64,000 bases of DNA from a virus (Duplodnaviria > Heunggongvirae > Uroviricota > Caudoviricetes): IMG/VR virus record IMGVR_UViG_3300048588_000114, positions 15,309-79,308 of that record, one strand, 5' to 3'. The notes below the pieces were generated by a model. The model was not told the DNA's origin, did not search any database, and worked only from the letters and a program-made list of their open reading frames with translations. Made by a program: the position numbers and the translations under genes. Positions 8,717-57,963 of the stretch are shown in pieces (positions within the stretch are counted from its first letter, which is position 1; each line of letters starts with the position of its first letter).

Positions 8717-8743
8717 CACAAATACTATAAACAACGAGAAATC

Positions 8744-9061
8744 ATGAACACACCGATAACAATACTAAAGACAACCGGGCCACTGAAGCTGATAACCGAT
8801 GGAAAAACAAGTGGTTGGGTGAAGCATAACTGGATCAACTTAGACGGTTCAATCAACAAGGAAGCCCAAGCCGCCTTATCCAAAGGGAAGCCGTATAACG
8901 GCACCGAACACGCCCTCACCATAAAGATATGGGTAGCTGAGGGAATGGCTGAGACGCACGCCCGGATAGCTCTCAAAGAGAAAGAAAGCAAGGGCGGGTT
9001 CCATACCTGGAAAGCAGAGCAGTACCGGGTGGAGGCCGTAAAACTCCGTGCTCAACGCTAA
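8744..9061 (+). CDS. hypothetical protein
   Basis: 105 aa ORF, followed by terminator. Confidence 0.5.
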   Translation: MNTPITILKTTGPLKLITDGKTSGWVKHNWINLDGSINKEAQAALSKGKPYNGTEHALTIKIWVAEGMAETHARIALKEKESKGGFHTWKAEQYRVEAVKLRAQR

Positions 9062-31220: not shown

Positions 31221-31277
31221 TAGCCACCACAGTTCCCCAGAGTTATTGTGGATATAACCATAAAAACAAATAAAAAT

Positions 31278-36542: not shown

Positions 36543-37220
36543 ATGAATCCAATAGATTACATCAGAGTAGACATCGCAGACGGTGTGGGCTCTATCGAAA
36601 AGGCTAGAGAGTTAGCCGCCGCTAATCCGGGGAAACTGGAGCTTGTACCGTTCCCTGACGAAACCCATAATTTCTGCTTATTCTCTAAGCTGAACATTAT
36701 TGAGTTTAATGTTCAATCCAAGGAGTTTAGCCTTCCGCAGGTTAAATGTCCGGTAACAGGCATAGTTGGTGTGTATGATCAAGAACATTATGAGGAAAAC
36801 CAAGCGGCTCCTAATACTATTGGAGATTTAATCAAAAATGTAGAATTATTCCACTATCTCTTCAAGCACCCAATAGGGACTGAACTAAGGCTATTAACAC
36901 CAGAAGAGGTGAATAAGCGCTATAACTACATCCGTGAAGAACTTGACGAATTTCAACAGGCTAAGACTATCGATCAGCAATTTGACGCCATGCTTGATAT
37001 GTTGTACTTTATCTTCGGGAACTTTGTTATTGCCGGATATGACGGAAAGATAGTGGAAGAAGGCTTTTTGGAGGTTCAAGCATCCAATATGACTAAGTTG
37101 GGTGAAGATGGCAAGCCTATCTATAAAGAGGGTGACGGCAAGATTATGAAGGGGCCAAACTACCGGGAACCACAGTTACAAGCTATAATTGACAAATTCA
37201 TAAGTAAAAAACAACTGTAA
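36543..37220 (+). CDS. hypothetical protein, possibly all-alpha NTP pyrophosphohydrolase (MazG/HisE-like)
   Basis: IREELDEFQQA ... DAMLDMLYFIFG resembles the EExxE...D metal-binding helices of MazG-type enzymes; assignment weak. Confidence 0.45.
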   Translation: MNPIDYIRVDIADGVGSIEKARELAAANPGKLELVPFPDETHNFCLFSKLNIIEFNVQSKEFSLPQVKCPVTGIVGVYDQEHYEENQAAPNTIGDLIKNVELFHYLFKHPIGTELRLLTPEEVNKRYNYIREELDEFQQAKTIDQQFDAMLDMLYFIFGNFVIAGYDGKIVEEGFLEVQASNMTKLGEDGKPIYKEGDGKIMKGPNYREPQLQAIIDKFISKKQL

Positions 37221-38016: not shown

Positions 38017-38057
38017 ACAATAATTCAGCTATAATCCTGATAAGGTTAAGTAATGCT

Positions 38058-38090
38058 AAAAGGGTGGGGCTTAGGCTTCACCCTTTTTGT
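38058..38090 (+). terminator. rho-independent terminator
   Basis: GGGTG-GGGCTTAGGCTT-CACCC followed by TTTTTG. Confidence 0.55.
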
Positions 38091-38118
38091 TCATTGTTAT
38101 TTATCAAAAGTACTAATT

Positions 38119-39855
38119 ATGCTAAAGAGTAGCATTGACCTAAGTGTGCCTAAATTGATCTTACCTAACACAGCAAATGCTTCGTATGGTAGGAACGATG
38201 TGGTAACACTAGACCAAGCACGTGAAGTTTACCGGGTTGTAGATGACCTCATTGATGGACTGGATGATGTGTCCCTTGATTTGCTATTTAGTGCCTCAGA
38301 GCATGATGTAGACAGGGTTTTATCCACTTTCTTTGAAGAATCATATGCTGTAATGTATGGCGGTGAGACACGTATCAAGGAAACATCTGTCAATTATCTG
38401 GAGAGATTATCTGAGAATATAGAAGAAGTATTGAGGGTTGAGAATTTCAACTATTTCCTAACCAATGTTCTCACTAATTTTGATATAAATTGGCACCACT
38501 TAGAGTGGGGGAGTTTAGCTCAGAATAATCGCTTCACTAATTTTATTGCTCCACGTGACCACGGAAAGACCTATTTTTTCTCTAATGCAATGACTTGTTG
38601 GCGTCTTTATCGCTATAAAGACCCGGATAGTGTAGCTAGACATCTAAGAAAAAGAAATGAACTTAATCGAAAAGGCTTCATTATCACTAATGAGATGGAG
38701 TTGGCCGAAGAAATCTTAGAGACTGTAAAGAATACCATAGAGGAACATGATATTTTACATGAAAGGCTCTATCCTAATACAAAAGACAACTGGTCAAAGC
38801 GTAGTATTAAGTGTAAAAACGGAGCAAGAGTAGGTTTAAAATCCTACGGTGGTAGCTTCCGGGGGCGCCACCCCGGTTGGATTACAGTGGATGACTTCTT
38901 AAAAGACAATGTGCTCTATTCTGAGGTTCAAAGAAAGAAAGCAATCGACTACTTTCACTCAGTAATTATGAATGCTATTTCTCCGGGTGGTAGCGTTACT
39001 GTAGTTGGAACACCATTCCATCAAAATGACCTCTACGGAGACCTAAAGACCAAGAAAACTTGGAAATGCTTTGAATATCCTGCTATTACTCCGCATGGAG
39101 ATGTATTATGGAGAACCCGTTATTCCTATAAAGACCTTATTGAGAAGCGTGAGGCGCAAGGAAATATCATTTTCTCTCGTGAAATCTTAGTTGTACCCAT
39201 ATCAAGCAACTCTACTTTATTCCCTTGGAATGTATTGAAGCGTTGTTTCATAGGTATGCAAGACTACACATTAGTGAAAAATAGAGATTCATTCCCTAAG
39301 AAATTCACAAAAGTAGTAACTGCTTGTGATTTCGCAAGAAGCGCCAATGTAGGTGCTGATTATTCAGCATTTACAACTTGGGGGATAGACGAGAATGAGG
39401 ATATGTGGCTATTGCATATCTGGAGGGCTAAAGGTCGGTCATTCCGTGATCAAATCAATGCCGTTAAGTCAATAAACGCTAACTTCAGGCCAGATGTAAT
39501 TGTGATGGAGGTCAACCAATTCCAGCAGATTATGGCTGATATTGCTGAAGAAGAAGGATTAACCAATGTTGTTCCACATACTACTACTGGTAAGAATAAG
39601 CATGACTTTATCATCGGTGTTCCGGGCTTAGCTATCCTATTTGAGAAAGGAAAAATACACATACCACGTGGAGATCAGTACAGCCGGGATGCCTCTGATG
39701 TTCTCATGTCTGAATTAAGTGCGATAGCATGGACAGATGAGGGAATACAGGGTGTTGGAGAGCATGATGATATGGCTATATCTACTTGGTTGGGAACAAT
39801 TGGAGCAAGAAAAATAGGTGTTGGCTTTGGACTTAGCTTCTTAGCGGCAGCATAA
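38119..39855 (+). CDS. terL: terminase large subunit (TerL)
   Basis: ATPase Walker A FIAPRDHGKTYFFS and Walker B ITVDDF. C-terminal RNase-H-like nuclease acidic motifs VVTACDFARS...DYSAFTTWG, DVIVMEVNQFQ and GEHDDMAIS. Confidence 0.85.
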   Translation: MLKSSIDLSVPKLILPNTANASYGRNDVVTLDQAREVYRVVDDLIDGLDDVSLDLLFSASEHDVDRVLSTFFEESYAVMYGGETRIKETSVNYLERLSENIEEVLRVENFNYFLTNVLTNFDINWHHLEWGSLAQNNRFTNFIAPRDHGKTYFFSNAMTCWRLYRYKDPDSVARHLRKRNELNRKGFIITNEMELAEEILETVKNTIEEHDILHERLYPNTKDNWSKRSIKCKNGARVGLKSYGGSFRGRHPGWITVDDFLKDNVLYSEVQRKKAIDYFHSVIMNAISPGGSVTVVGTPFHQNDLYGDLKTKKTWKCFEYPAITPHGDVLWRTRYSYKDLIEKREAQGNIIFSREILVVPISSNSTLFPWNVLKRCFIGMQDYTLVKNRDSFPKKFTKVVTACDFARSANVGADYSAFTTWGIDENEDMWLLHIWRAKGRSFRDQINAVKSINANFRPDVIVMEVNQFQQIMADIAEEEGLTNVVPHTTTGKNKHDFIIGVPGLAILFEKGKIHIPRGDQYSRDASDVLMSELSAIAWTDEGIQGVGEHDDMAISTWLGTIGARKIGVGFGLSFLAAA

Positions 39856-43310: not shown

Positions 43311-43673
43311 ATGATCAAAATCACACAAACCGAGGAAATGCTCAAAAGAGTTAGTAAGAACGATGTAATTTGGTTCTTCAAGAGCATAATGATGGATAAA
43401 AACCTAACAACCGGAGCAGCCATCAATCTCTTATCAGCCGGGTACAGTAAGTCAGAAAGACATCGTCATTATGCTCCTGATGGGGAAACTAAGGTGAAAG
43501 CCCTTATTGTTAAGATGAACTTAGCCGGAGCAGGCAAAAGAGAGTATTTTGAGTTCTATCTTGTTAGGGATAGTAAGAAGAATGTAGTGTTTCACCGCTC
43601 AATATCCCGTATCGAAACTATTGAAAATCATACTAAAACTAAGAAAAATGCCAAAGATAGCGTTCCGGCCTAA
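43311..43673 (+). CDS. hypothetical protein
   Basis: 120 aa ORF; 3' end overlaps next gene. Confidence 0.5.
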   Translation: MIKITQTEEMLKRVSKNDVIWFFKSIMMDKNLTTGAAINLLSAGYSKSERHRHYAPDGETKVKALIVKMNLAGAGKREYFEFYLVRDSKKNVVFHRSISRIETIENHTKTKKNAKDSVPA

Positions 43674-44673
43674 ATTAGGTCTAAATAAGAAAAATCTCAA
43701 ACAGCTTGAGTTAGTTAACTCAATCATTGAGGAATACAGGAAAATGGGCTACCGTCTAACCCTCAGGCAATTATACTACCAATTAGTCTCTCGTGATGTG
43801 ATAGCTAATGATGTGAAGGAATATGATAAGCTGAGCAATCTACTTACCAAGGGTCGAATGGGTGGCGTGGTTGATTGGGATGCAATTGAAGATAGGATTC
43901 GTCAGCCAAGATTGCCTTATGCGGTAGAAGGAGTTGATCACGCAATAGATGAAGCCTACAATCATTACCGTATTGATCGTCAGGAAGATCAACCTAACTA
44001 CATTGAATTATGGGTGGAGAAAGATGCCTTGAGTTCTGTTCTATGGCGTAAATCTAAGCATTACCACATAAATTTGATGGTTAACCGGGGCTATTCTTCC
44101 TGCACAGCTATGTATGACGCCTATTGTCGTTTTAAGGCCGCTACAGATCGTGGTCAAGAAATCCATATTCTCTATTGTGGAGACTTTGACCCATCAGGAC
44201 GTGATATGCTCAGGGACATTGATGAGAGACTTACAGAGTTCGGAGCTAAAACAATTATGGTTCACTCCATAGCCCTGACTATGAAGCAAATCAAAGCACA
44301 TAAGCCACCGCCTAATCCGGCTAAGATAACTGACCCAAGGGCTAAGGATTATATCATTCAACATGGTAATAAATCATGGGAAGTGGATGCTTTACGTCCA
44401 GAAACTCTACATGAAATCATTGATACTAATATTGAAAAACTCTTAGATTTAGAGCTATTCAATAAGAGAATGGAGCGTGAGGAAGCAGAAAAGGTCGAAT
44501 TAGCTTTAGTTCCTAAGCAGCGCAGAAATATCAATGAAGTTCAAAAGTATCTCAAAGAGAGAATGGAGCAACTTGATAGGAATATGAAGAGCGAGAAGCA
44601 AGCTAAAGAAGACCTTCGTAGGAATAAAGTGCTTCAAGCTGAATTGAAATCAGTATTTGATTTGATAAAATAG
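43648..44673 (+). CDS. Spo11/topoisomerase-VI-A-like protein (5Y-CAP-like winged helix plus Toprim domain)
   Basis: LTLRQLYYQLVS resembles the Spo11/TopoVIA active-site Tyr motif. IELWVEKDAL gives the Toprim Glu. ILYCGDFDPSGRDML gives Toprim DxDxxG. No TopoVIB-like ATPase partner nearby. Confidence 0.65.
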   Translation: MPKIAFRPKLGLNKKNLKQLELVNSIIEEYRKMGYRLTLRQLYYQLVSRDVIANDVKEYDKLSNLLTKGRMGGVVDWDAIEDRIRQPRLPYAVEGVDHAIDEAYNHYRIDRQEDQPNYIELWVEKDALSSVLWRKSKHYHINLMVNRGYSSCTAMYDAYCRFKAATDRGQEIHILYCGDFDPSGRDMLRDIDERLTEFGAKTIMVHSIALTMKQIKAHKPPPNPAKITDPRAKDYIIQHGNKSWEVDALRPETLHEIIDTNIEKLLDLELFNKRMEREEAEKVELALVPKQRRNINEVQKYLKERMEQLDRNMKSEKQAKEDLRRNKVLQAELKSVFDLIK

Positions 44674-44678
44674 GATAA

Positions 44679-45302
44679 ATGAGCAAACTTTGCATCTGGA
44701 TTATAGGGGGCAGCGGGGTGGGTAAGACCACCTTAGCTGCCTCTATCCATAGTATGATAGCCGAATTGACCAAAGCGGCATTAAAACCACAAATAATTGG
44801 CTGGGGAGACAAAGATAAAGAATTTGTATTTACCCGAATGTCTAAATATTCATCTAATTTAGGGACTTTTGGACAGACTGCCTGTGGAGGAACTGATAGT
44901 CTCTCTACTAAAGATCGCATATCAGGTTCCTATTTGGAAGCCATAAAACATTCCCCGATTGTAGTAATTGAAGGGATTATGGCAACTTCGACTTGGTTTG
45001 ATTGGATCAAAGAACCAGATAGAACTAAATTATTCTTAATTCATCTTGAAATCAGCCCGGAGGAGAACTTTCGCCGTCTAAGAATCCGCAGGGCTGCTCG
45101 CAAAGGTATCAAACCGGAAGATGTAGAATTACAGCCAAAAACGCTTGATAATTTATCATCGAAGCTCAAAAACTTCCGCAATCTCTACAGGAAGATTGCT
45201 CCCAAGTCAGACTACCATCTTCAAATTCACTGCGAAGTCCTAAATCAGGAGCGCACCGCTGATATTGTTCGACAATTTATGATCGACCATATTCTTAGCT
45301 AA
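44679..45302 (+). CDS. P-loop nucleotide/nucleic-acid kinase, paralog 1
   Basis: Walker A IIGGSGVGKTT. Shares with 48590 and 49261 a G(T/L)DS(L/V)S(T/S)K segment, a hhhhE Walker-B-like element and NFRRLRIRR. Confidence 0.7.
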   Translation: MSKLCIWIIGGSGVGKTTLAASIHSMIAELTKAALKPQIIGWGDKDKEFVFTRMSKYSSNLGTFGQTACGGTDSLSTKDRISGSYLEAIKHSPIVVIEGIMATSTWFDWIKEPDRTKLFLIHLEISPEENFRRLRIRRAARKGIKPEDVELQPKTLDNLSSKLKNFRNLYRKIAPKSDYHLQIHCEVLNQERTADIVRQFMIDHILS

Positions 45303-45593
45303 TCCTAAGCAACAACAGTTATACAAAGTTATCGGTTTCTCAAGAGCAAGACATGGTGTACTGAGTTTGTAGTAGGTTCTCCACTTCACCCGCTTGCAAC
45401 ACTATACTGAATCTAAGTTGGCAATTTAATTAGCCGTTTTCAGATAGAGGTCATTAGACTTACACTTTGTAGGTTTTGTCCACCTTTTATCTCCCACTAC
45501 CTGAATAGTACAGAAAGTTGCTGTTCACATGTGAGACGACCAATCAACGTTAATTCCCCTTACAAATTAGTGACTTTTTAGCCCTTATTCCAT

Positions 45594-46115
45594 ATGGAAA
45601 ACACACAAAATGTAGACATTACCACGTTCGTTGGATATGAAGATGTCAAAAATTTAGTTTATAAGCTAATTCAGGCAGAATTGAATAAGCCCTCATTAGA
45701 GCAAGTCATCGGTTATGATCTGGCGAATTGTATTCGTAACATGGACTTCTACCAGTTACAGGACAAACACCGTCAAGGATTTGATGTTTATCTAATAAAA
45801 TTACTAAGCGGCGCAGACCGTCTTTCCCTCATTTACTCAGACATATTAGAGACGGAGGAAGAATTAGCAGTTTTTCGTGCGAAGTATGATGAATTGAAGC
45901 GTCAGTTTGATATTGCCGTTGCCCGCCCGGATTGGAAAGCTGGCGTAACAGAAGTTCAAGTCACGGAGGAAGGCAATCAATACTATGGAAAGCAGTACAT
46001 AGTTAGTAAGTTTTACTACGTCCCTTCAGAGAAGGTCTGGATGGTTGAAGTAAAACACCCAAATAATCCTAACAACAAAAACATTTTTAAACACACACAA
46101 TTAGGTAAAATCTAA
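45594..46115 (+). CDS. hypothetical protein
   Basis: 173 aa ORF after a 290 bp ORF-free gap. Confidence 0.5.
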   Translation: MENTQNVDITTFVGYEDVKNLVYKLIQAELNKPSLEQVIGYDLANCIRNMDFYQLQDKHRQGFDVYLIKLLSGADRLSLIYSDILETEEELAVFRAKYDELKRQFDIAVARPDWKAGVTEVQVTEEGNQYYGKQYIVSKFYYVPSEKVWMVEVKHPNNPNNKNIFKHTQLGKI

Positions 46116-46252
46116 TGGAAAATCAAAGCAAACGCACTCCTTCGAACATTAAGGACATCAAAAAGCGGCTGAAAAATGGAGAGCCGACAACGTTTCATGA
46201 AAGAAACATAGTTAATATCTATGATAAGAAGAAACTAAAGAACAAAAAGTAA
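46115..46252 (+). CDS. hypothetical small basic protein (45 aa)
   Basis: Manually read; start and stop both overlap neighbours (TAATG). Confidence 0.25.
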   Translation: MENQSKRTPSNIKDIKKRLKNGEPTTFHERNIVNIYDKKKLKNKK

Positions 46253-47241
46253 TGAAAACAGACATAGTTGTAATTGGTAGTGGCCTTATAGGTAGTATGG
46301 TCACTAAATATCTTCGTGAAGTGCGAGGTATGGAAGTAGTGATAATAGACCAAAAGAACACCATGGCCGCTTCCAAGTGTAGTTTTGGCGTGTGGAAAGA
46401 AGGTTGGGTCAATGAGGTTATCCAGAAAGAATACAAGGACGGCTTAGAGCTATTAGATACTTTTAGCGGAGGAATCAAAGAAGAAGAATTCATTATCAAG
46501 CCGAAGCCCTATAAAAACAGGTCTATGGTAGATACATATGAGGTTAAATTAGAGATGAAGGCAGAAACCTTTAAGCGGGTGGATTGCTCTCTACTTCTGA
46601 ATGAGGAATCAATCAATGCTACGGTTCTCTCTATAGATCAAAACCGGGTTACGATCTTACATGCTGGCAAAGAGCAACGCAAAGAAGTCATTGTAGCTAA
46701 GCATATTGTGGTTGCTGCTGGGGTTTGGACTACCGACATACTAACAGAGAATGGACTGATGAATAATCTGCCTTATCTTGACCGCCAGTGGGGGGCTGTA
46801 TTCCATCTAAAAGGGAATGGCGATGTGAATTTACCAGCATCACAGATGCAAGAGTGGGCACCCTATAAACAGTCAGTATTCGTCAATTTAGGCAATAATC
46901 GTGGTGTATTTGGAGATGGTGCAACCATTAAAAATCCTAAGCCGAATGACGATAAGGTGAGATTTGCTTCTGATAGAATTGTTCTCCATATGAATGATTT
47001 ACTAAAGAGAAACATTAAAGACGGCAAAGAAACCTATTCTCAGACTAAATTCACAGGAAGCATAACTGAAATTCTTGAAGGCTACAGGCCGTATCTAAAT
47101 AAGCAGAAATCACATACCGGGCGTTTTGTGAATCGTCACTCAGATTATGTTATTTCAGCTACAGGAGGCGCTAAAAACTCTACGATTCTTTGCGGTCACA
47201 TGGCTAAAGAAGTGTGGAGGCTAATTAAGGCCGCTGGGTAA
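46252..47241 (+). CDS. FAD-dependent oxidoreductase (DAO/glycine-oxidase-like Rossmann)
   Basis: N-terminal dinucleotide fold MKTDIVVIGSGLIGSMV...VVIIDQ (GxGxxG plus acidic end of beta2); C-terminal SATGGAKNSTILCGHMA. Confidence 0.65.
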   Translation: MKTDIVVIGSGLIGSMVTKYLREVRGMEVVIIDQKNTMAASKCSFGVWKEGWVNEVIQKEYKDGLELLDTFSGGIKEEEFIIKPKPYKNRSMVDTYEVKLEMKAETFKRVDCSLLLNEESINATVLSIDQNRVTILHAGKEQRKEVIVAKHIVVAAGVWTTDILTENGLMNNLPYLDRQWGAVFHLKGNGDVNLPASQMQEWAPYKQSVFVNLGNNRGVFGDGATIKNPKPNDDKVRFASDRIVLHMNDLLKRNIKDGKETYSQTKFTGSITEILEGYRPYLNKQKSHTGRFVNRHSDYVISATGGAKNSTILCGHMAKEVWRLIKAAG

Positions 47242-47305
47242 TTCTCAAAGTTATTAGCTACTCTACTAAAGAAGTAAAAGACATACCAATAAAATCAAGA
47301 AAACC

Positions 47306-47569
47306 ATGGCAAAACAAGAAACAAAAGCACCTGCAAAAAAGGCAGCGGCTAAAACGGATGATGGACAAATCTGGGCTTACAATGTAAGAGCTAAAGAAAA
47401 GCAAGTGATGCACAACGCTGTTATCAGCAAAACCACTCGTGGTGGTTTTATGGCTTCCGGAACATCGGAAGATGGCGAAACGAAGCTCACCACCATCCTA
47501 TCAGCAGCTAATGCTGAGAAGTTCGTTGAAAGCGGCGTAGCTAAAAAAGACAAGAAAACCTGGAAATAG
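47306..47569 (+). CDS. hypothetical small basic protein
   Basis: 87 aa, Lys/Ala-rich N-terminus. Confidence 0.45.
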   Translation: MAKQETKAPAKKAAAKTDDGQIWAYNVRAKEKQVMHNAVISKTTRGGFMASGTSEDGETKLTTILSAANAEKFVESGVAKKDKKTWK

Positions 47570-47601
47570 TTATTCTCAAAAACTAAACCCGGCTAAGAAG
47601 T

Positions 47602-47634
47602 GATGCCCTGCTGTGAAGTGGGGCATTTCTTTTA
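47602..47634 (+). terminator. rho-independent terminator
   Basis: GATGCCC-TGCTGTGAAGTG-GGGCAT followed by TTCTTTT. Confidence 0.55.
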
Positions 47635-47654
47635 ACCCACAGTTATCTAACAAC

Positions 47655-48593
47655 ATGAGCAGAAACATCTATCGAGATTTTGATATATTTGCCCGGGCAT
47701 TAGTTAAGTCTAATGATGTAGACCCGGTTTATCCAGTAGTTAGGGGAATCCTAAAAGCCTATCCAAAATACCAGCCTGAGTGGTTTATTTTCGTGTATGT
47801 TGCTTTCTACAATCTTGAGACGGCCATACAGTTCTGCGATTTATGGCCTACGGCTTTGAGTTTCCAAGAACCTCAGGCACATCGGGAGTTTATGGAGATG
47901 CGATTGGCTGGTAAACTAAAGAAATTTGGCCATGAGCGCCGGGGGTCTTGCCGGAATCCTAAGAATCAATTGGAGTTATTTGATGCTGCGACTTGTTTCA
48001 CAGAAGATTGTATTAAGGGACGTGGCTTGAAGCAAGCTGATAATCTAACCTTTCGTCAGGTGTTAATGGAGCATCCTTGGCACGGTTATTGGTCTTCCTA
48101 CAAGATCGCAGAATTGTTTGAGAAATCTTTAGGCTGGGACAACTTAAAGATCAATGACTTAGGAATTGACGGTAGAGACCCTAACAGTAATGATGGCCCT
48201 ATTGGAGGACTAAGATGGCTGTTTGATAGAGAAAGTCAATATAATTCCCTTTGGTATAAGATATGGAATAGATTTGGCAAGCGATTAAGCAAAGAATATG
48301 GGTGGGGGATAGGAGAAACAGAGACTTGCTTGTGTAAATTTCATAAATTGATGACCGGGAAGTATTATGTGGGTCATGATGTGGATGAATTTTATGATTT
48401 AAGGCATGTTTTAAGCCCGGAGAACTATCGAAACATATTGGGCAATAATTTTACTGGCTTTTGGGAAGAAGGCATTAAAGGGGTTAAAAAGCACCAAAAA
48501 TCGCACTACCAAAAAACTGGAGAGATTTTGAATTCACATTATGGGGATTCTGTTTCCCCGGTTGATGTGGAAAAACTAATACTTGAATTATGA
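47655..48593 (+). CDS. hypothetical ~313 aa enzyme-like protein, paralog A of a duplicated family (candidate DNA-modification transferase)
   Basis: ORF 47613-48593; ATG 47655 follows terminator. N-terminal NIYRDFD...EWFIFVYVAFYN is paralogous to NVYRELD...LFHILVFRIFNQ in 49889-50872. Alternates with P-loop kinases. Confidence 0.6.
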   Translation: MSRNIYRDFDIFARALVKSNDVDPVYPVVRGILKAYPKYQPEWFIFVYVAFYNLETAIQFCDLWPTALSFQEPQAHREFMEMRLAGKLKKFGHERRGSCRNPKNQLELFDAATCFTEDCIKGRGLKQADNLTFRQVLMEHPWHGYWSSYKIAELFEKSLGWDNLKINDLGIDGRDPNSNDGPIGGLRWLFDRESQYNSLWYKIWNRFGKRLSKEYGWGIGETETCLCKFHKLMTGKYYVGHDVDEFYDLRHVLSPENYRNILGNNFTGFWEEGIKGVKKHQKSHYQKTGEILNSHYGDSVSPVDVEKLILEL

Positions 48594-49264
48594 GTAAGCA
48601 GAAAATCTTAGTAGCAATACATGGCGGCGGCGGGAGTGGTAAGACCACCCAGCTAAAGAAGCTAATTGATTTCCTTTCAGAAGGAAAAAATGATGGAATT
48701 GTGGAGTCAAAAGTCATATCTAAGGAGAAGATGGACTACTGTTACACGCTTTATCCTAAGGCTAATCTAGCCGTTATAGGTAAATTAGGCGATAATCAAT
48801 GTACTGGATTAGATACAGTTTACAGTAAGTTAGGAAATGAAGGGGTTGGAAGAAGTATCAAAGCTGCCTTGGAGAATCCGGAAGTAGATATCATAGCAAT
48901 TGAGTGTTTGTTTTTAACCTTCAGTTGGTATGAGACTTGGGTGAAAATGGGTATTAGGAGCCAATTTAAGCTACTTTTCGTGCTGCTTGATCTATCTCTC
49001 TGGGACAACTTTAGGAGAATTCAATTGAGGCGTTTTAAGAAGAAGCCGGATGGCGTTGAGGACTATCGTGATGTGTTTCTTGAAGATACCGTTTACAAGA
49101 ATGTAGGCACTAAGAATGGTGAAGCGAGAATTATCTATCAAAAGATAGCCGGGGAACATCCTAAAAGCCTAACAAAGTGCGCTGATATGTGTTTTACGGT
49201 TGACGCTAAACTCCATCCTGACCTAATATTCAATAAGATTATTAATGCCATTTATAAGATATGA
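48590..49264 (+). CDS. P-loop kinase, paralog 2
   Basis: Walker A AIHGGGGSGKTT; QCTGLDTVYSKLGNEGV and NFRRIQLRR motifs shared with paralogs. Confidence 0.7.
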   Translation: MSKQKILVAIHGGGGSGKTTQLKKLIDFLSEGKNDGIVESKVISKEKMDYCYTLYPKANLAVIGKLGDNQCTGLDTVYSKLGNEGVGRSIKAALENPEVDIIAIECLFLTFSWYETWVKMGIRSQFKLLFVLLDLSLWDNFRRIQLRRFKKKPDGVEDYRDVFLEDTVYKNVGTKNGEARIIYQKIAGEHPKSLTKCADMCFTVDAKLHPDLIFNKIINAIYKI

Positions 49265-49884
49265 CTACTATCATCTGGATTGTTGCTGGCCTTTCTGTAG
49301 GCAAAACCACGTTAAACAAGGATTTGATTGAGGTTTTAGGTGATGAGCCACGCCGTCTCGTAGAGGGGACAAACAATGGTGTGCCTTATTGTTATACCCG
49401 TTATGGGGTGATTTGTAGTTTAGGCAATCTGAATGATTCCCAATGCTCAGGATTAGATAGAGTTAGTAGTAAATTAAAGAATGAAGGAATTGAAGAATCT
49501 ATAAAACAGGCAGTTAAGGATGGTGTTCAATTCATAATTGTAGAGAGTATCATGTCAGCGTCAACTTGGCTTGATTTCTTAAAGAAGCATACCGATAATT
49601 TACTAATGGTTCACTTATGTTGTGATTTTGAATCCAATGTGAGACGTCTAAAATACAGGCAATTTACAAGCCCGGATTATAAGGGAATTGCTGAAGCCCC
49701 AGTTGATATTAGACTTACTGATGGGAATTATGAGTTTATTCGCAAGACCCGGAAGCAATATCTGGCCATATATGAAAAGTTCAAAGACAAAGTTAATCAC
49801 AGTGTTAGTATTGATACTACCAACATCGGCACTAAAAAGGTGATGAAGGGAGTGCTGAAGCTAATTAACGACAGTCTTTCCTAA
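49261..49884 (+). CDS. P-loop kinase, paralog 3
   Basis: Walker A IVAGLSVGKTT; QCSGLDRVSSKLKNEGI and NVRRLKYRQ motifs. Confidence 0.7.
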   Translation: MTTIIWIVAGLSVGKTTLNKDLIEVLGDEPRRLVEGTNNGVPYCYTRYGVICSLGNLNDSQCSGLDRVSSKLKNEGIEESIKQAVKDGVQFIIVESIMSASTWLDFLKKHTDNLLMVHLCCDFESNVRRLKYRQFTSPDYKGIAEAPVDIRLTDGNYEFIRKTRKQYLAIYEKFKDKVNHSVSIDTTNIGTKKVMKGVLKLINDSLS

Positions 49885-49888
49885 GATT

Positions 49889-50872
49889 ATGGCATTATTA
49901 AATTTTCAAAGCAGCTATGGGACTAACTCAAATTTAGAGAAATCCCTACCGGACGCATCACTACAATTAGATGAGTTCCATTTAGACACGTTCTTCGGAA
50001 CAATGCTGGAGCGTCAGCGTATTACAATGAAGCGGCTTCGTGGAGAGCCGTGGCCTTGGACAGAGAATAAGTTTCTCCGGGACTATAAATTCACTAATGT
50101 TTACCGGGAATTAGATCGTAACTCTCAATGGGAAATCAACAATATCATAAAAAACGAGAAGTTGACTGACGAAGATACCCTATTCCACATCCTAGTTTTT
50201 AGGATATTTAATCAACCGGACTTCTTTGAATACAATAAAAAACACAAGGGATGGAAGAATGGTATTCCGCTCTTTAGAGAATTTAGTAAGGAGGCATTTG
50301 AACAGGCCATTTATGATTACAGGGCAACAGGGAATAATCCCTTCACTAATGCTTACCTTACTAATTCTCAATCTTGTCCCGGTCAAACCCGTGATTGGTG
50401 TTATGGCAACGTCATAATCCCTAACTATCATGAGCGTGTCCCAGAGTTTTTGGAGGCGTTTAAAGAGCATAAAACCGCTAAAGAGACAGCTAAAATGCTA
50501 GTAAGTCTCAAGTCAGCAGGTTGGTTTGTGGCTCATGAGTTCTATATTTCACTATGCTATATCGCTAAATATCGGGAAGAAACCTTCTTTCCTTGGACTG
50601 AAATGGATTGGACTAATGTTGGGCCTGGCGCTAGCTTAGGTTTAAGGCTTATATTTCCGAATCTTGATAGTACTTCTAAGCAATTAGAAGGTATCTTTTT
50701 GCTCCACAAAATGGCTAGATCTAAATTTAAGCAATTAGGTGGTTTTGAATGGTTAGATGAACGCAAAGAATTCACCCTTCATCAGATAGAATTTTGGTTG
50801 TGCGAATACGGGAAATACTATAAAATGATGGTTGGAGAAGGAAAGCAACGCTCTAAGTACATTCCACACTAA
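49889..50872 (+). CDS. hypothetical 327 aa enzyme-like protein, paralog B (candidate DNA-modification transferase)
   Basis: PWPWTENKFLRDYKFTNVYRELDR segment; same length and shared N-terminal motif with 47655-48593. Confidence 0.6.
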   Translation: MALLNFQSSYGTNSNLEKSLPDASLQLDEFHLDTFFGTMLERQRITMKRLRGEPWPWTENKFLRDYKFTNVYRELDRNSQWEINNIIKNEKLTDEDTLFHILVFRIFNQPDFFEYNKKHKGWKNGIPLFREFSKEAFEQAIYDYRATGNNPFTNAYLTNSQSCPGQTRDWCYGNVIIPNYHERVPEFLEAFKEHKTAKETAKMLVSLKSAGWFVAHEFYISLCYIAKYREETFFPWTEMDWTNVGPGASLGLRLIFPNLDSTSKQLEGIFLLHKMARSKFKQLGGFEWLDERKEFTLHQIEFWLCEYGKYYKMMVGEGKQRSKYIPH

Positions 50873-51358
50873 ATGTTTAAGAAAGGCAATACTGTAACAT
50901 TAGGGCGCAAGCTAAATTTAAGCGATGAAGAGCGCAAAAGACGTGCTAATCATGTTAAATCGAATATAAATGCCAAAGGACTAAATGTTGAGAATGGTAA
51001 CTATTGTAAATTCTACGAAGTTGATGGATTGAGAATCCAAGGTAGATGGGAATTAGCCTATATACTAAATCTAAAGGCATTAGGTCTTCCGTTACCAACT
51101 AAATCCAAGATAATTTTAACTCCAACTGGTGCCTATACGCCTGATTTTGAATTTGATGATTATTTTGTAGAGGTTAAATCCGCCTACACCATTAGGACTT
51201 GTAGGACAAATGGCCAATTTGAGAAGATAAAATGGGTTAGTAATAACATTAAAAAAGTTAGGATAGTTCTAATAACAGAAAGAAGAGTTGGGGAGATTTT
51301 ATTCAGGCAAAGATACGCAAAATACCAACGTTCTCTAAGGAACCCTTATCAGATATAG
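50873..51358 (+). CDS. PD-(D/E)xK-type nuclease-like protein
   Basis: TPDFEFDDYFVEVKS contains D...ExK in the expected beta-strand context; a YxxxE-G motif lies upstream. Confidence 0.45.
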   Translation: MFKKGNTVTLGRKLNLSDEERKRRANHVKSNINAKGLNVENGNYCKFYEVDGLRIQGRWELAYILNLKALGLPLPTKSKIILTPTGAYTPDFEFDDYFVEVKSAYTIRTCRTNGQFEKIKWVSNNIKKVRIVLITERRVGEILFRQRYAKYQRSLRNPYQI

Positions 51359-51384: not shown

Positions 51385-53484
51385 ATGATCAATTCATTAG
51401 ACTTTGCCGCTAACCTACACAAAATGAAGTGCAGGAATATCACTGCTGGTTTCGTAGGAGAAGCCGGAGAAATTCAAAAAGGAGAAGTAGAGGATGTAAT
51501 GGCCTATACTAAGTTTCAGTCAGCTGTCCATTCTAACAATATACTTGGGAAAGTGTCGGAAGACAAGACCCATCTATTGACTAAGGCAGTTGATATGGAT
51601 GAGGATATATTCCTCAAAGCCGTAAAAGATCAAGCACTGGAGGTTTATGACCACGGTAGTCTAAATAAGTTTAAATCAGATTTAGTAAAAGCCGCTGCTT
51701 CAGGGAAAGTGTCTTCTGACATAATTGAAAAGGCTAAAAAGGATTTAGGCAAACTTACTAAAGTCCAAGTGTCAGACAAGAACGGCCAAAAGCGCACTGT
51801 TTGGGTCAAGAGAGGAGGTGACGATGAAGCGTCACAGGGAAAGCAAGCTAAGGTTGCCTATGCCTCAGATACTAAGACTAAGGAAGAAGGTGACCACATT
51901 ATCAGCCGGGCTAAGGCTGCTTTAGATAATCCACGAACTCCAATGTCAATGAGAGCTAAGGCTCAAGAAATGATTGACGCTGAAAATAAGAAGTGGTCTA
52001 AAGAACAGGAAGCACATTCTGATTATTCTAACGAAAAACACCCACATCACGAGGCTTACAAGGCGGGGCATGAAGCCGCTAAGAGCGGGGGAACTTCTCA
52101 TGCCTATGATAAGAACTCTGAATCTGGTAAAGCAAAGGCAGAGGCTTGGGAAGCCGGGCATAAAGCTGCTGGAGGTGGTAAAAAACCTGACTATGACAAG
52201 GAACTCGAAGACATGTACGACAAAAAGACTGGCGGCGATAAGGAAAAAGCCCCGGAGGAAAAAAAGCCTGTGGAGAAACCTAAAGCCAAAGAAAAAAAGT
52301 CTGTAGATGATACTGAGAAACATGAGGCTAGACGTAAAGACTTAGCTAAACGTGCTCTTGACGAGCATAAAGATGTTGAAATAGCTTCGCATATTCTCGA
52401 CTCTAAGAAAACTAAACATACTGATTTAGACGGACATGAAAAAACCTTAAATGAGCTAACTAAAAAGAAAAAGAAGATTGATGAGAGTGTTAAAAAGTTA
52501 GTAGCCGCTGGATATTCTGAAGATGATGCTAATGATTTTGCTGATGAGCACTATCAAGGAGGCTCTAAACTTCCAGCGAAAGCTAAGGCTGTTATTGAAG
52601 GTAAGTATGAAAAGCCATCAATGACTAAAGAAAAAGCTAAGGAAATTACCTCTAAATACAACAAGGACGGCTCTGAAAAATCCAGTATGTCTAAGGAAAA
52701 GGCTAAAGAAATAACTTCTAAATACAATCGTGATGGTTCTGAGAAAAAAGCAGAGCCTAAAAAGCCTAATTCTAAAGAATCTGACGTTATTGGAGGCGTT
52801 AATGTTAGGAATTTAGCTAAGGAGGCAATAGATGAAGAACCTGAAGTAGAGGGCGATGGAGAAGACGCAATGGCAACTGGCGCTTGCGCTAGTATTACTG
52901 AGCATATTCATCAAAATTTAAAAAAGAAAGGCATAAAATCAGAAGTTTTAGACATAGCTCCAACTAAAACTCCATATTCTGGAGTTGGCCCAGATCACAC
53001 AGCCCTATATTTACCAGATCATGATTTGATTTTAGACACACAGGTTTGGCAATATCATAGTAAAACAGAGCTACCTGATGTTGATATTTCAAAACGAAAA
53101 ATCACTTACACTCCAGAGGAATATGAGAAATTAGGATTTGAAGTGCCTAAAGATATGCCTATGAATGGCAAATCAGCGTATTTGAAGAGAAGCGGTAAGA
53201 AAGAGGCAGAAAAAACACCTAAAAAGAGCATGAAAGACCATCTCAGCGACAAAGAAGGCTGGGAACGCAATAAAGAGTATGATATGGATTCTAAGCACGT
53301 AGGAGGAGGAATTCATGCCTTTAAAACGGATGAAGATCAAATGGTGTATATGTCTAATCCGGGGTCAGCCAAAGAGAAGGAACACACTGAAGAAGAAGCA
53401 GAAGCCGCCTACAAGAAGCATAAAGACAAGGTTGAGAAAGCCATGGAGGATGATTCAATCCTTGAAGAAGTAGGTAAAAACTAA
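51385..53484 (+). CDS. large Lys/Glu-rich low-complexity protein with internal tandem 20-aa repeat (candidate internal/ejected virion protein)
   Basis: 699 aa. Repeat SMTKEKAKEITSKYNKDGSEK / SMSKEKAKEITSKYNRDGSEK at ~52615-52745; folded-looking C-terminal domain. Confidence 0.6.
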   Translation: MINSLDFAANLHKMKCRNITAGFVGEAGEIQKGEVEDVMAYTKFQSAVHSNNILGKVSEDKTHLLTKAVDMDEDIFLKAVKDQALEVYDHGSLNKFKSDLVKAAASGKVSSDIIEKAKKDLGKLTKVQVSDKNGQKRTVWVKRGGDDEASQGKQAKVAYASDTKTKEEGDHIISRAKAALDNPRTPMSMRAKAQEMIDAENKKWSKEQEAHSDYSNEKHPHHEAYKAGHEAAKSGGTSHAYDKNSESGKAKAEAWEAGHKAAGGGKKPDYDKELEDMYDKKTGGDKEKAPEEKKPVEKPKAKEKKSVDDTEKHEARRKDLAKRALDEHKDVEIASHILDSKKTKHTDLDGHEKTLNELTKKKKKIDESVKKLVAAGYSEDDANDFADEHYQGGSKLPAKAKAVIEGKYEKPSMTKEKAKEITSKYNKDGSEKSSMSKEKAKEITSKYNRDGSEKKAEPKKPNSKESDVIGGVNVRNLAKEAIDEEPEVEGDGEDAMATGACASITEHIHQNLKKKGIKSEVLDIAPTKTPYSGVGPDHTALYLPDHDLILDTQVWQYHSKTELPDVDISKRKITYTPEEYEKLGFEVPKDMPMNGKSAYLKRSGKKEAEKTPKKSMKDHLSDKEGWERNKEYDMDSKHVGGGIHAFKTDEDQMVYMSNPGSAKEKEHTEEEAEAAYKKHKDKVEKAMEDDSILEEVGKN

Positions 53485-53496
53485 AAGCATTTCGTT

Positions 53497-55149
53497 ATGG
53501 CTGGAAATAAGTTAGAGAAACTAATTCAATTAGAGCAAAAAGTAGGTAAACTAAAGGACAGGGAGATTGAAAAAGCCCTTTCCTCTAGCGACCCTAATGA
53601 GCTCATAAAAGCCCACTTAGCTTTCCAGAAGCAAGTAGAGGCACGTCAAGATCACGGCCACAAAGCATATCTGGTTGACCCTAATGAGTTCCAAAGTTCT
53701 TTTGGCTACAAAGATCGACCAGTCAATTTGTCCTATAATATGCTGAAGGGAATGGCGAGAGTGCCTGTAATTAATGCGGTCATAAAGACCCGTATCAATC
53801 AGGTTGCTGCTTTCTGTGAGCCTCAGAAGAATGAATATAGTGTTGGCTATGTTATTCGAAAACGTAAACTACCCGGTGAGAACTCTCCTACTAAAATGAC
53901 TAAGGATGAGAGACAGGAAATTTATGATCTTCAGGATTTCATGGAGAATTGTGGGGAAACAAATGTCTGGGGTGCTGATGATTTTGATGCTTTCTGTAGA
54001 AAGATAATCAGAGATAGTCTTGTATTTGATCAAATGACCTTTGAAGTAGAGAGGGACAGAAGAGGAAAGCCAGTGGCTTTTTATGCTGTAGATGCTTCTA
54101 CAATGAGACTATCTGAAAGTTTCGATGATCAGAACTATGAGCAGTATAAGAACACAATCAATGTAGGTACGAAGATAGCTAAGGTTCAAAATTACTATCC
54201 TTCCTATGCTCAGATATTGGATGGTAGTGTACATGAGCTATTTTATCCATGGGAAATGTGCTTTGGTATTCGGAATCCCACTACTGATGTTACAATGTCA
54301 GGATATGGAGTTTCTGAGTTAGAAGAATTAGTGTCTGTGGTTACATCTCTTGTCTGGGGAGAAGAATATAACAGACGTTTCTTCAAGCAAGGTTCTGCGC
54401 CTAAGGGTATTCTTAGGATTTCAGGCTCAATGCCTGATCATAAATTGAATGAGTTTAGGCAGAATTGGAACTCCACTATGCGTGGTGTCCAAAACGCCCA
54501 CCGAACTCCGGTTCTCGAAGCAGAGAAAGCTGATTGGATTGATCTTCAGCGCAATAATCGGGACATGGAGTTCACTCAATGGATGGAGTTCCTAATTAAG
54601 GTAGCTTGCGCCATTTATACCATAGACCCTTCTGAGATTAACTTCCCTATGAGTGGCTCAGCTGGCTCTTCTCCTATGTTTGGAGAAAACAAAGAGTCAA
54701 CATTGAAGTTTTCTCAAATGAAAGGTCTTTATCCCATCCTAAAGTTCCTACAAAAACGCATCAATAAGTATCTTATTCAGCCACGCAATCCTAAGTATGA
54801 GTTTGCTTTTGTTGGTTTAGATGCGATGACACCTAAGGAACAAGCCGAACTGGATGAGAAGTCAGTTAAAACCTACAAGACGGTGAATGAGTTGAGGAAA
54901 GAAAAGAACCTCAAGCCATTGCCGGGCGGGGATATATTGCTTGATTCTACTTTCGCTAGGGCTGTAAATGCAGAGAAACAGAGACAAATGATGGATGATA
55001 GCCAAGGATATGAGGACGGCGGTGCCGGGGCAGAAGAAGCCATTATTTCAGGTAAATATCCCGGCGGTGAGGCTGAGGAAGAACTGGATAAAAATAATCC
55101 AATTATCAAATCCTTAGAGGAGTTCTTGATTGGCATCAATACGAAATAA
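53497..55149 (+). CDS. candidate portal protein
   Basis: 550 aa at the head of the capsid-morphogenesis block; size and position are typical. No decisive motif. Confidence 0.45.
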   Translation: MAGNKLEKLIQLEQKVGKLKDREIEKALSSSDPNELIKAHLAFQKQVEARQDHGHKAYLVDPNEFQSSFGYKDRPVNLSYNMLKGMARVPVINAVIKTRINQVAAFCEPQKNEYSVGYVIRKRKLPGENSPTKMTKDERQEIYDLQDFMENCGETNVWGADDFDAFCRKIIRDSLVFDQMTFEVERDRRGKPVAFYAVDASTMRLSESFDDQNYEQYKNTINVGTKIAKVQNYYPSYAQILDGSVHELFYPWEMCFGIRNPTTDVTMSGYGVSELEELVSVVTSLVWGEEYNRRFFKQGSAPKGILRISGSMPDHKLNEFRQNWNSTMRGVQNAHRTPVLEAEKADWIDLQRNNRDMEFTQWMEFLIKVACAIYTIDPSEINFPMSGSAGSSPMFGENKESTLKFSQMKGLYPILKFLQKRINKYLIQPRNPKYEFAFVGLDAMTPKEQAELDEKSVKTYKTVNELRKEKNLKPLPGGDILLDSTFARAVNAEKQRQMMDDSQGYEDGGAGAEEAIISGKYPGGEAEEELDKNNPIIKSLEEFLIGINTK

Positions 55150-57089: not shown

Positions 57090-57963
57090 AAATCAACATC
57101 TCATTTTCTTGGCTAATACAGTTGGGACTGGTATTCTCTCCCAATCTGACTTAGATATTCTAACTAGTCATGGGATAGATGTGACTAAATTACCCACATA
57201 TGGTGTAGTTGACGATGCTTTTCGTTTCGGAATATTAGCGGATGCGCTTGGAAGCGAGAAAGCTAAGAAAATGTCTTATAGTGATTTCAAGAATACCCTA
57301 AAGAGTGGCGGTTTCCTTCCCTTAACTAAGGCAGAAAAAATTAGTCTTGATCACATAAAGCAACGCACTTATAGTGATGTAACTGGATTAGGTACTAAAA
57401 TCGGTAAAGATTTAAGCAATATAGTCATAGAGAACTCTAAGAAACAAAGAGCGCAATATGAGAAAATTCTACAAGATACAATAGCTGCTGGCGCTGAGAA
57501 GAGCAGGTCTGCTCGTGAAATTGCTTCAGATTTAGGCCACGCCACAAAAGATTGGGCAAGGGACTTCGATCGCATAGCTGATTATGTACTTCATGAAGCT
57601 TTTGATACAGGTAAAGCCATGTCCATACTAAGAGAAGCGGAGGCGGCTGGTGAAGAAGCGTATGGCTACAAAGAAGTTTATGAAGGAGCATGTCAGCATT
57701 GTATTAGTCTTTATCTAACAGACGGCATTGGAAGTAAGCCCCGGATATTCAAAATGTCTACACTCATTGCCAACGGCTCTAATATTGGTCGGACGGTAAA
57801 GGAATGGAAACCCGTGATAGGCTGTACTCATCCTTGGTGCCGTTGCGAATTATACCATCTCAGACCTAATAATGAGTGGGATTCAGAAAAGAAAATGTTT
57901 GTCCTTAAACGTAACACCTACGGAGTTACAAGGAAATCTAAAATCAAAATCATATCGGAATAA
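57043..57963 (+). CDS. putative head-morphogenesis protein (Mu gpF / SPP1 gp7-like position) with C-terminal Cys4 motif
   Basis: 306 aa between portal region and protease; CQHC...CTHPWCRC zinc-like cluster. Confidence 0.45.
   Translation: MILTPAQIQELVKIIENQHLIFLANTVGTGILSQSDLDILTSHGIDVTKLPTYGVVDDAFRFGILADALGSEKAKKMSYSDFKNTLKSGGFLPLTKAEKISLDHIKQRTYSDVTGLGTKIGKDLSNIVIENSKKQRAQYEKILQDTIAAGAEKSRSAREIASDLGHATKDWARDFDRIADYVLHEAFDTGKAMSILREAEAAGEEAYGYKEVYEGACQHCISLYLTDGIGSKPRIFKMSTLIANGSNIGRTVKEWKPVIGCTHPWCRCELYHLRPNNEWDSEKKMFVLKRNTYGVTRKSKIKIISE

Follow-up and report, generated by a model that had tools for sequence, protein, structure and literature searches.

Do the kinase, transferase and flavoenzyme genes that lie between the terminase and portal genes of an uncultured tailed phage encode a pathway that decorates thymine in DNA, and which base would such a pathway make? 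The genes occupy positions 44679 to 50872 of a 64-kb stretch of IMG/VR record IMGVR_UViG_3300048588_000114 (hereafter the window). The window covers 64 kb of a ~110-kb genome whose lineage is known from metagenomes only, and the same proteins are present on a 110,210-bp JGI contig. We conclude, with a probability of about 75%, that 44679-50872 is a PaMx11-type post-replicative thymidine-hypermodification cassette of a divergent, probably Bacteroidota-infecting phage. The initial annotation, drawn from the DNA letters and translated open reading frames (ORFs), had likened the locus to phage clusters in which 5-hydroxymethyl-dU (5-hmdU) DNA kinases act with aGPT-Pplase-type enzymes, and had suggested that it might be a new pathway. 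The likeness is borne out by the kinases, by one protein each of PF18724 and PF18723, and by a homolog of the PaMx11 flavoenzyme gp47. The suggestion of novelty is not: the genes instead point to a PaMx11-type route that lacks the acetyltransferase (PMC8989533, PMC11472151). All cassette ORFs were found on the + strand at or near the coordinates of that annotation, and the genes for the enzymes are the following.

44679-45302, + strand: K1, a divergent, 5-hmdU DNA kinase-like P-loop kinase of 207 aa (N-terminal part of phrog_800, E 7.3e-10)
46252-47241, + strand: predicted FAD-dependent Nα-glycinylthymidine lyase/oxidase, homolog of PaMx11 gp47 (NGTO) (PF01266, E 4.6e-12)
47655-48593, + strand: P1, predicted amino-acid:DNA transferase (AADT; aGPT-Pplase clade 2) of 312 aa (PF18724, 28.7 bits versus a gathering score of 26.2)
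48590-49264, + strand: K2, a 5-hmdU DNA kinase (5-HMUDK)-like kinase of 224 aa (phrog_800, E 1.3e-8)
49261-49884, + strand: K3, the third kinase paralog, 207 aa (phrog_800, E 2.2e-6)
49889-50872, + strand: P2, an aGPT-Pplase clade 1 or "5-hmdU DNA kinase helical domain" protein of 327 aa

The genes are tightly packed: P1 and K2, and likewise K2 and K3, overlap by 4 nt, K3 and P2 are separated by 4 nt, and P2 abuts the next ORF, N. Comparable arrangements were found in four related loci, in which S denotes a small protein encoded directly after the FAD gene and A, X and the 45-aa ORF denote neighbors described in the last section.

L005, 105.9 kb: A, K1, X', 45-aa ORF, FAD, S, P1, K2, K3, P2
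L007, 50.7 kb: K1, FAD, S, dUTPase/dCTP deaminase (DCD), further genes, ADDT, K2-type, Methyltransf_21, HMUDK_hel
L025/L026, 95.9 kb, a metagenome-assembled genome from NCBI: K1-type, further genes, FAD, S, further genes, TAGT, ADDT, K2-type, Methyltransf_21, HMUDK_hel
L008, partial: K1, further genes, FAD, S, with ADDT further on

Taken together, a core set of K1, the FAD lyase, S, P1 (AADT), K2 and P2 (clade 1) recurs in L005, L007 and L025/L026, and part of it in L008, with cassette genes 40 to 75% identical across several contigs. The cassette lies upstream of the portal gene wherever a portal gene is seen (all loci but the partial L008); in the window, L005 and L007, it has the terminase gene on its other side.

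Some of the related loci carry additional genes. An FkbM-type methyltransferase (PF05050) occupies the K3 slot in L007 (15121-15810), L025 (8760-9476) and L026 (8451-9167). A TET-associated glycosyltransferase (PF20691 TAGT) gene stands just before the ADDT gene in L025/L026 (L026 6061-6873), and L007 has a dUTPase/dCTP-deaminase gene within the cluster. The methyltransferase and TAGT genes of these loci could yield 5-methylaminomethyl-dU, a DNA analogue of tRNA mnm5U, or glycosylated derivatives.

Predicted lyase, transferase and helical protein

The PaMx11 route to the acetylated base 5-AcNmdU has been reconstituted and characterized (Lee et al. 2021 NAR, PMC8989533; Wen et al. 2024 NAR, PMC11472151), and a "combinatorial diversity" of 5-HMUDK/AADT clusters, flavin oxidoreductases included, is already on record in published surveys (PMC8989533). 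The FAD-dependent oxidoreductase recognized at 46252 in the initial annotation is a member of PF01266 and shows full-length homology to the PDB entries 8z2o/8z79, "flavin-dependent lyase" (E 6.2e-19; residues 1-80 and 141-326 covered). Its N-terminal FAD-binding GxGxxG motif reads GSGLIG (residues 9-14). In gp47, a set of residues is reported to cage the flipped base or to bind DNA, and the proposed role of R242 is to hold the glycine adduct by its carboxylate. The window protein retains the base cage W51/Y180/Q182/K268 as W52, Y205, Q207 and K308, the carboxylate-binding R242 as R279, and also Y244 and K202; R210 is replaced by lysine. This set, R242 included, is conserved across five loci (the window and the four related ones). 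Among cultured phages, homologs of the FAD protein were found in PaMx11-like phages only, with PaMx11 itself the best match. On sequence grounds, the FAD protein is a homolog of the characterized flavin-dependent lyase gp47.

P1 exceeds the gathering score of PF18724 and has a weak PDB match to 25qc, "Amino acid:DNA transferase." Its residues were compared with those of PaMx11 gp46 through the PaMx11-type ortholog Ab18 ORF09, whose residue positions agree with the numbering published for gp46. P1 shares 10/12 of the gp46 active-site residues (D24, Y51, E92, W146, K150, E243, T244, C247, D262, and E265), the equivalents of E243, T244 and C247 being carried by the segment ETCLCKF. In gp46, C247 attacks C6 of the base, E243 and T244 are metal ligands contacting uracil O4, and W146, K150 and D24 contact glycine (PMC11472151). 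We assign P1, by homology, as an amino-acid:DNA transferase. Its start is most likely the ATG at 47655, giving 312 aa, rather than the alternative GTG at 47613, giving 326 aa, because this is the start called on an identical contig and because a terminator-like hairpin at 47602-47627 overlaps the GTG start.

P2 matches PF18723 HMUDK_hel with 183.1 bits (gathering threshold 25; E 9.6e-54) over profile positions 3-279 of 281. It has an HhH-glycosylase-like fold, and its nearest solved structure is that of PaMx11 gp46. The initial annotation had proposed to compare both proteins of this type with aGPT-Pplase and HhH-glycosylase-like folds; P1 (PF18724) and P2 (PF18723) belong to the two known aGPT-Pplase clades. 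In P2 and its homologs, E301...C305 is invariant and E306 nearly so. The E301...C305 pattern resembles the E-T-x-L-C motif of AADTs, which suggests a catalytic rather than purely structural role for P2. A P2 homolog is encoded directly after the small kinase gene in the M6-like phage MP1412 and the PaMx11-like phage Ab18; the characterized phages thus normally encode the kinase as a protein of its own, with the helical protein after it.

P1 and P2 had been described as two equal-length paralogs of ~326 aa. What stands of this is a kinship at the superfamily level, PF18724 and PF18723 being sister Pfam families. The lengths differ (312 versus 327 aa), and BLASTP of P1 against P2 found no similarity. 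An hhalign comparison of the small P1 and P2 family alignments is weak (probability 7.5%, E 0.005) but nonetheless brings the G-x-aromatic and E-x-x-L-C motifs into line with each other. On the BLASTP and hhalign results, P1 and P2 were rejected as recent paralogs.

Clade-1 proteins also occur in other settings. PF18723 homologs ~44% identical to P2 (L023/L024, 10001-11011) are very abundant, with hundreds of sequences in some clusters, and reside on contigs of ~58 to 97 kb beside a portal gene and near a dUTPase/DCD gene. As no ADDT is seen in the 20 kb viewed of these loci, the clade-1 protein may act without an AADT in those phages.

Three paralogous kinases

The initial annotation had also recognized three paralogous P-loop proteins starting at 44679, 48590 and 49261, and this holds. 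In mutual BLASTP comparisons K1, K2 and K3 are 28 to 33% identical over ~190 to 220 residues (E 1e-12 to 4e-18), and the motifs then quoted are present: a Walker A motif (its first G is A in K3), C-x-G-x-D...SK, and an Arg-rich NFRRLxxRR element. We regard the three, from these alignments, as true paralogs. None of the three has lost the Walker A lysine, D73, R133 or R137, and none therefore looks like a dead copy.

The best PHROG for each kinase is phrog_800, to which the M6-like, PaMx11-like and Tonitrus kinases are likewise assigned (E 1e-23 to 1e-39). The phrog_800 profile spans 511 residues; its N-terminal part matches K1-K3 and its C-terminal part matches P2, a layout consistent with a fused kinase-plus-helical form. 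When an 11-member K alignment was compared by hhalign with the M6-like, PaMx11-like and Tonitrus kinases, the match (probability 98.1%, E 1e-13, 131 columns) ran well past the P-loop. In the alignment, G71 and D73 do not vary among the K family and the two Pseudomonas-phage kinases; R137 is invariant in the K family and Ab18 ORF12 and is N in MP1412 gp13. K2 additionally gives a weak match to PF18747 HMUD2 (E 0.056).

Searched against 1.84 billion representative proteins, the K-family profile retrieved 383 matches at E<=1e-3, 64 of them at E<=1e-30, and the branch comprises ~100 clusters at E<=1e-10. For K1, a set of 5.8 billion nonredundant proteins yielded no more than 11 homolog clusters (E<=1e-3). 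In the distant tail of the profile matches, 22/47 proteins match PF18748 HMUDK_HMUD1, 2/47 match HMUD2 and 1/47 carries a fused ADDT domain; the remaining frequent matches are to generic P-loop models, and 10/47 touch PF01712 dNK. As judged from these profiles, the K family forms a rare and divergent branch, its closest named relatives being the 5-hmdU DNA kinases. Between 5-HMUDKs and dNMP kinases, the distinction raised by the initial annotation, the phrog_800 assignments, the hhalign match and the prevalence of PF18748 favor the former.

A neighbor-joining tree places the K1, K2 and K3 sequences in separate clades, that of K3 being sister to that of K2. K1 orthologs occur near the FAD lyase gene in L005, L007, L008 and L025/L026, and K2 orthologs occur just after the ADDT gene in L005, L007 and L026; the K1/K2 split is kept in at least four divergent contigs. 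K3 was found in the window and L005 only (44% identity), its slot being taken by the FkbM-type methyltransferase in L007 and L025/L026. On this distribution, the K1/K2 pair is conserved across the lineage and K3 is lineage specific.

Why one cassette would keep three kinases can be accounted for in several ways. The kinases might have differing sequence-context specificities; hypermodification in known phages depends on sequence context (PMC8989533). They might phosphorylate successively to a pyrophosphate, an intermediate seen in vivo in ΦW-14 and SP10 and not reproduced in vitro (PMC8989533). Pyrophosphorylation of the base by the kinases, as the initial annotation had it, does not agree with the behavior of the characterized kinases, which add one phosphate in vitro to give 5-PmdU (PMC8989533). 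Each kinase might instead be paired with a different partner (K1 with the lyase module, K2 with the AADT and K3 with P2), or one paralog might act on nucleotides instead of DNA. A combined proposal, in which the paralogs divide labor (by consecutive phosphates, or by feeding separate downstream enzymes according to sequence context) and free 5-aminomethyl-dU is the natural end-product base, we hold to be doubtful. In its separate-enzyme version, P1 may lead to 5-aminomethyl-dU, while the Cys-bearing clade-1 protein P2 may lead to thymine or a second product.

A split-kinase reading of the small ORFs that precede the clade-1 genes of Bacillus phage YungSlug and Acinetobacter phage nACB2 was rejected, as these ORFs encode Tad2-like and Macro-domain proteins.

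Predicted pathway and alternatives

From the homology, conserved catalytic residues, fold and synteny found for these genes, we infer the substrate, the individual roles of the kinases and P2, and the final product as follows. The phage would replicate with 5-hmdU in place of T, using a source enzyme encoded outside the window. One or more of K1, K2 and K3 would then transfer phosphate to the hydroxymethyl group in duplex DNA, forming 5-PmdU, with the clade-1 helical protein P2 probably working with the kinases. The conserved cysteine of P1 would attack C6, phosphate would be expelled, and the amino group of glycine would join the exocyclic methylene to give Nα-glycinylthymidine (Nα-GlyT). The FAD enzyme would oxidize the N-Cα bond, and hydrolysis would release glyoxylate and leave 5-aminomethyl-dU (5-NmdU). 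The predicted final base is this free amine or a derivative made through X, the 45-aa ORF, S, or N. The prediction of 5-NmdU follows from the lack of an acetyltransferase: no such domain was detected by Pfam or PHROG in any ORF between 43.6 and 51.4 kb. It is sturdier than the assignment of glycine, since N-Cα cleavage would yield 5-NmdU from any Nα-linked amino acid.

The closest parallel is the gp46-gp49 cluster of Pseudomonas phage PaMx11 with the clade-1 gene that follows it. Both systems combine an AADT whose active site has Cys, Glu and Thr with a flavin-dependent Nα-GlyT lyase and a small P-loop 5-HMUDK, and both encode a separate clade-1 helical protein immediately behind a kinase. PaMx11 differs in possessing the GNAT acetyltransferase gp48, which leads to 5-AcNmdU, whereas 5-NmdU is predicted for the window. 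PaMx11 also has one kinase, whereas the window has three that are 20 to 30% identical to the kinase of the PaMx11-like phage Ab18. In addition, the window encodes a conserved 87-aa protein after the lyase, places the lyase gene before the AADT gene, and has its cassette between terminase and portal, while the PaMx11 cluster lies next to ThyA and PolA. Identity between the window and PaMx11 proteins is only ~21 to 28%.

Other known systems share parts of the scheme. Pseudomonas phage M6/MP1412, with the 5-NedU pathway, likewise has an AADT, a kinase and a clade-1 protein, with the kinase gene preceding that of the helical protein. In M6, however, a radical S-adenosylmethionine (radical-SAM) isomerase and a pyridoxal-phosphate (PLP) decarboxylase tailor Nα-GlyT, and the window cassette has neither; no methyltransferase, glycosyltransferase, PLP or radical-SAM enzyme was detected in it by Pfam or PHROG. 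Salmonella phage ViI and Bacillus phage SP10 also have more than one 5-hmdU kinase per genome (PMC5889632), and ViI has a clade-1 plus clade-2 Pplase pair (PMC5889632, Table 3). Their second kinase is from a separate family ("Kinase2," PF18747 HMUD2) and their genes are scattered, in contrast to the three paralogs of one divergent family in one cassette. The closest cultured P1 homologs are from actinophages (Rhodococcus phage Tonitrus and Gordonia phages), in which the AADT gene is also followed by a small kinase gene. These clusters differ in that 5-hmdU is made by oxidizing T in DNA with a TET/JBP thymine dioxygenase (PMC8989533; PMC13229309); no TET/JBP or ParB partner was detected in the window. 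Finally, the tRNA xnm5U pathway (MnmEG, MnmC) also installs glycine at a C5-methylene and then uses FAD-dependent cleavage to give an aminomethyl group (PMC8989533), and the methyltransferase added in L007 and L025/L026 extends the likeness to MnmC2. The substrate in the window would be DNA and the activation would be by a base kinase, whereas the tRNA route proceeds by folate/FAD-dependent carbon transfer.

Several observations count against a PaMx11-type assignment. Two pocket residues of P1 differ from those of gp46 (Y47 to V and K261 to H), and the AADT family uses glycine, serine, putrescine or 1,3-diaminopropane as the co-substrate, a choice that the sequence does not reveal (PMC8989533, PMC13458397). 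The cited hypermodification literature establishes no experimental role for clade-1 proteins such as P2. K1-K3 have no homolog in cultured phages (tblastn, 50,697 phage records) and reach no 5-HMUDK Pfam model (PF18748, none at E<=0.1; gathering threshold of 27 bits). The latter model misses genuine members, as Ab18 ORF12, ortholog of the validated PaMx11 kinase, is also below its threshold (16.5 bits versus 27). A PDB sequence search with K1, the K-family profile and a YuA-type kinase retrieved P-loop matches only and no 5-HMUDK structure, and is nondiscriminating. Lastly, Pfam scans of ~50 ORFs and tblastn with four phage ThyA proteins and one JBP detected neither a dUMP hydroxymethylase nor a TET/JBP dioxygenase, a dCMP deaminase or a dUTPase in the 64-kb window, and the supply of 5-hmdU is therefore presumed.

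A ThyA-like gene was matched by tblastn only in L013, a 94.9-kb IMG/VR contig from a distant relative, where it lies at 8174-8914, ~1.2 kb upstream of a UvrD helicase gene. The window starts at the orthologous UvrD helicase gene, and a hydroxymethylase could lie just outside it, although this is suggestive only. That the MazG-like gene of the window helps to clear dTTP or dUTP is speculation.

Of the alternatives, the one that fares best keeps the cassette and changes its product: P1 would use some amine or amino acid in place of glycine, or the base would be tailored by X, the 45-aa ORF, S, N, or an extra kinase, or both, so that 5-NmdU is not the end point. AADTs with near-identical active sites take any of the four co-substrates named above (PMC8989533, PMC13458397), P1 departs from gp46 at Y47 and K261, related loci hold extra tailoring genes (Methyltransf_21 and TAGT), and four conserved or adjacent ORFs have no assignable function. 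Yet the lyase retains the carboxylate-binding R242 and the entire base cage, with which any Nα-linked amino acid would still give 5-NmdU, and the window cassette has no detected acetyl-, methyl- or glycosyltransferase domain. We consider a different product unlikely.

More improbable is that one or more of K1-K3 are nucleotide kinases (e.g., a 5-hmdUMP kinase for 5-hmdUTP synthesis), with only one paralog acting on DNA. Phages that use hmU must have 5-hmdUMP phosphorylated (general knowledge; PMC8989533), and the K proteins bear the general fold signature of nucleoside monophosphate and deoxynucleoside kinases, with secondary weak matches to guanylate and thymidylate kinase PHROGs and the PF01712 matches among their distant relatives (10/47). 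The C-x-G-x-D motif and Arg-rich segment of K1-K3 are, however, common to validated-type 5-HMUDKs, phrog_800 is the best family for each, and PF18748 is the specific family most frequent among the distant relatives. K2 and K3 are moreover translationally coupled between the AADT and the clade-1 protein.

That the cassette is an inactive remnant for want of 5-hmdU, of which the window has no source, or acts on RNA, as the relatedness of gp47 to the tRNA enzyme MnmC (MnmC1; PMC8989533) might suggest, is very improbable given the intact catalytic residues in every component, the selection implied by tight packing and 40 to 75% identity across several contigs, the retention of the gp47 DNA-wedge and DNA-contact residues Y180, K202, R210 and Y244, and the ThyA-like gene just upstream of the UvrD helicase gene in the distant relative L013.

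Under the preferred reading of a PaMx11-type cassette, the pathway itself is known and the advance is modest: a conserved K1/K2 pair with a lineage-specific K3, the small protein S, a likely Bacteroidota-phage lineage, and the missing acetyltransferase. The cited literature reports hypermodified bases in phages of Pseudomonas, Salmonella, Delftia, Bacillus and Acinetobacter only, with a gene system predicted for a Rhodococcus phage. The window extends the thymidine-hypermodification toolkit to a lineage of ~95- to 110-kb phages with Bacteroides-phage terminase kin. The K branch is unlikely to surface in BLAST searches seeded with M6, ViI or ΦW-14 kinases (PMC8989533 method). If the scheme is correct, 5-aminomethyl-dU would be a natural final DNA base, beyond its place as an intermediate, and the three-kinase set would be a naturally occurring case in which to study why several base kinases are retained in some phages and what clade-1 aGPT-Pplases do. 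Thymine decoration in viral DNA serves evasion of host nucleases, and such enzymes have practical value in enzymatic DNA labeling and in making restriction-resistant DNA.

Small ORFs, flanking genes and genome setting

Interspersed with the enzyme genes, or flanking them, are the following features.

43648-44673, + strand: A, a TopoVI-A/Spo11-like protein of 341 aa (phrog_6247, "DNA topoisomerase," E 3.6e-86)
45303-45593: intergenic region of 291 nt between K1 and X, with long identical blocks shared with the corresponding L005 gap
45594-46115, + strand: X, a 173-aa protein with no Pfam or PHROG match
46115-46252, + strand: 45-aa ORF abutting the FAD gene, also called on the identical contig
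47306-47569, + strand: S, a small Lys-rich protein of 87 aa with no Pfam or PHROG match
47602-47627, + strand: terminator-like hairpin between S and P1, an 11-bp stem followed by a T-run
50873-51358, + strand: N, a 161-aa ORF abutting P2

S is encoded directly downstream of the FAD gene in the window and in L005 (12390-12650), L007 (11665-11919), L008 (10902-11129) and L026 (3154-3369), with a length of 71 to 87 aa, and PaMx11 has no counterpart. It could be a DNA-binding protein or a partner subunit. X is partly kept in L005 (35% identity to a 107-aa ORF), and the 45-aa ORF is 55% identical (E 1e-10) to a 47-aa ORF at the same L005 position.

The gap between K1 and X keeps its identical blocks with L005 although the flanking proteins are only 35 to 71% identical. 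Within it, no tRNA and no Rfam match were found, and the fold z-score is -0.4. An RNA element was rejected on these grounds, the folding energy not being in excess; the gap is possibly a promoter or regulatory region.

L005, L007 and L026 lack N, for which searches of Pfam, PHROG, the PDB and cultured phages gave no match. Its segment TPDFEF...VEVKS resembles, by eye only, a PD-(D/E)xK nuclease motif. N is a downstream neighbor and not a conserved cassette component, possibly an inserted nuclease-like gene that is perhaps mobile or of a homing type.

The initial annotation had a TopoVIA-like gene heading the cluster. The identity of A stands. The top two Foldseek PDB matches of its model (predicted local distance difference test score of 85.6) are to M. 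mazei Topo VI-A (9o8p_A, E 7.9e-4, probability 1.00; second match, E 7.6e-3), and the model has the two-domain TopoVI-A/Spo11 fold of a winged helix (5Y-CAP) and a Toprim domain. The motifs RQLYY, WVEKD and GDFDPSG (GDxDPSG) are invariant in the family alignment. Functional membership in the cluster does not stand. The family, for which there is no Pfam model, has >7,300 homologs (~60% identity, typically ~290 aa) and is widespread in siphophages; 85 cultured phages carry a member, none of them with an annotated hypermodification gene at the match, the only place where annotation was read. A lies beside the cassette in the window and L005 only, and not in L007 or L025/L026. A role as a cassette component was rejected on this distribution and synteny, and A is probably an adjacent gene. 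No B-subunit-like gene was noticed among the scanned window ORFs, although no search was aimed at one.

The window as a whole belongs to a divergent tailed-phage genome with nearly every gene on the + strand. Megablast against the 50,697 cultured-phage records matched nothing. The nearest cultured terminases, at 37% identity, are those of Bacteroides thetaiotaomicron phages, and the hosts of the cassette lineage are probably Bacteroidota. Pfam scans of the window ORFs, most of the remainder of which had no match, gave these landmarks.

9-1520: UvrD-type helicase
35097-36340: RNase T and RNase H
36543-37220: MazG/PRA-PH protein
38053-39855: large terminase
53497-55149: portal
57963-59951: type-IB topoisomerase-like protein
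61769-63289: SU10-like capsid protein

The cassette is situated between the terminase and portal genes of this list. Between it and the portal gene lies an ORF (51385-53484, + strand) for a 699-aa Lys/Glu-rich low-complexity protein with an internal near-duplicate segment, …KEKAKEITSKYN(K/R)DGSEK…; two segments of this protein (~380 residues) are kept in L005 at 55 to 61% identity. The topoisomerase-like gene (57963-59951, + strand) encodes a 662-aa protein with a eukaryotic-type topoisomerase IB catalytic core (PF01028, E 4.8e-18), and its position between the portal and capsid genes is an unusual site for a topoisomerase. Two proteins that are uncommon in phages are encoded in the early/middle region, a patatin-like phospholipase (29135-30028, + strand; PF01734, E 3e-15) and a 510-aa SPFH/Band-7 protein (31248-32780, + strand; PF01145, E 7.5e-16).

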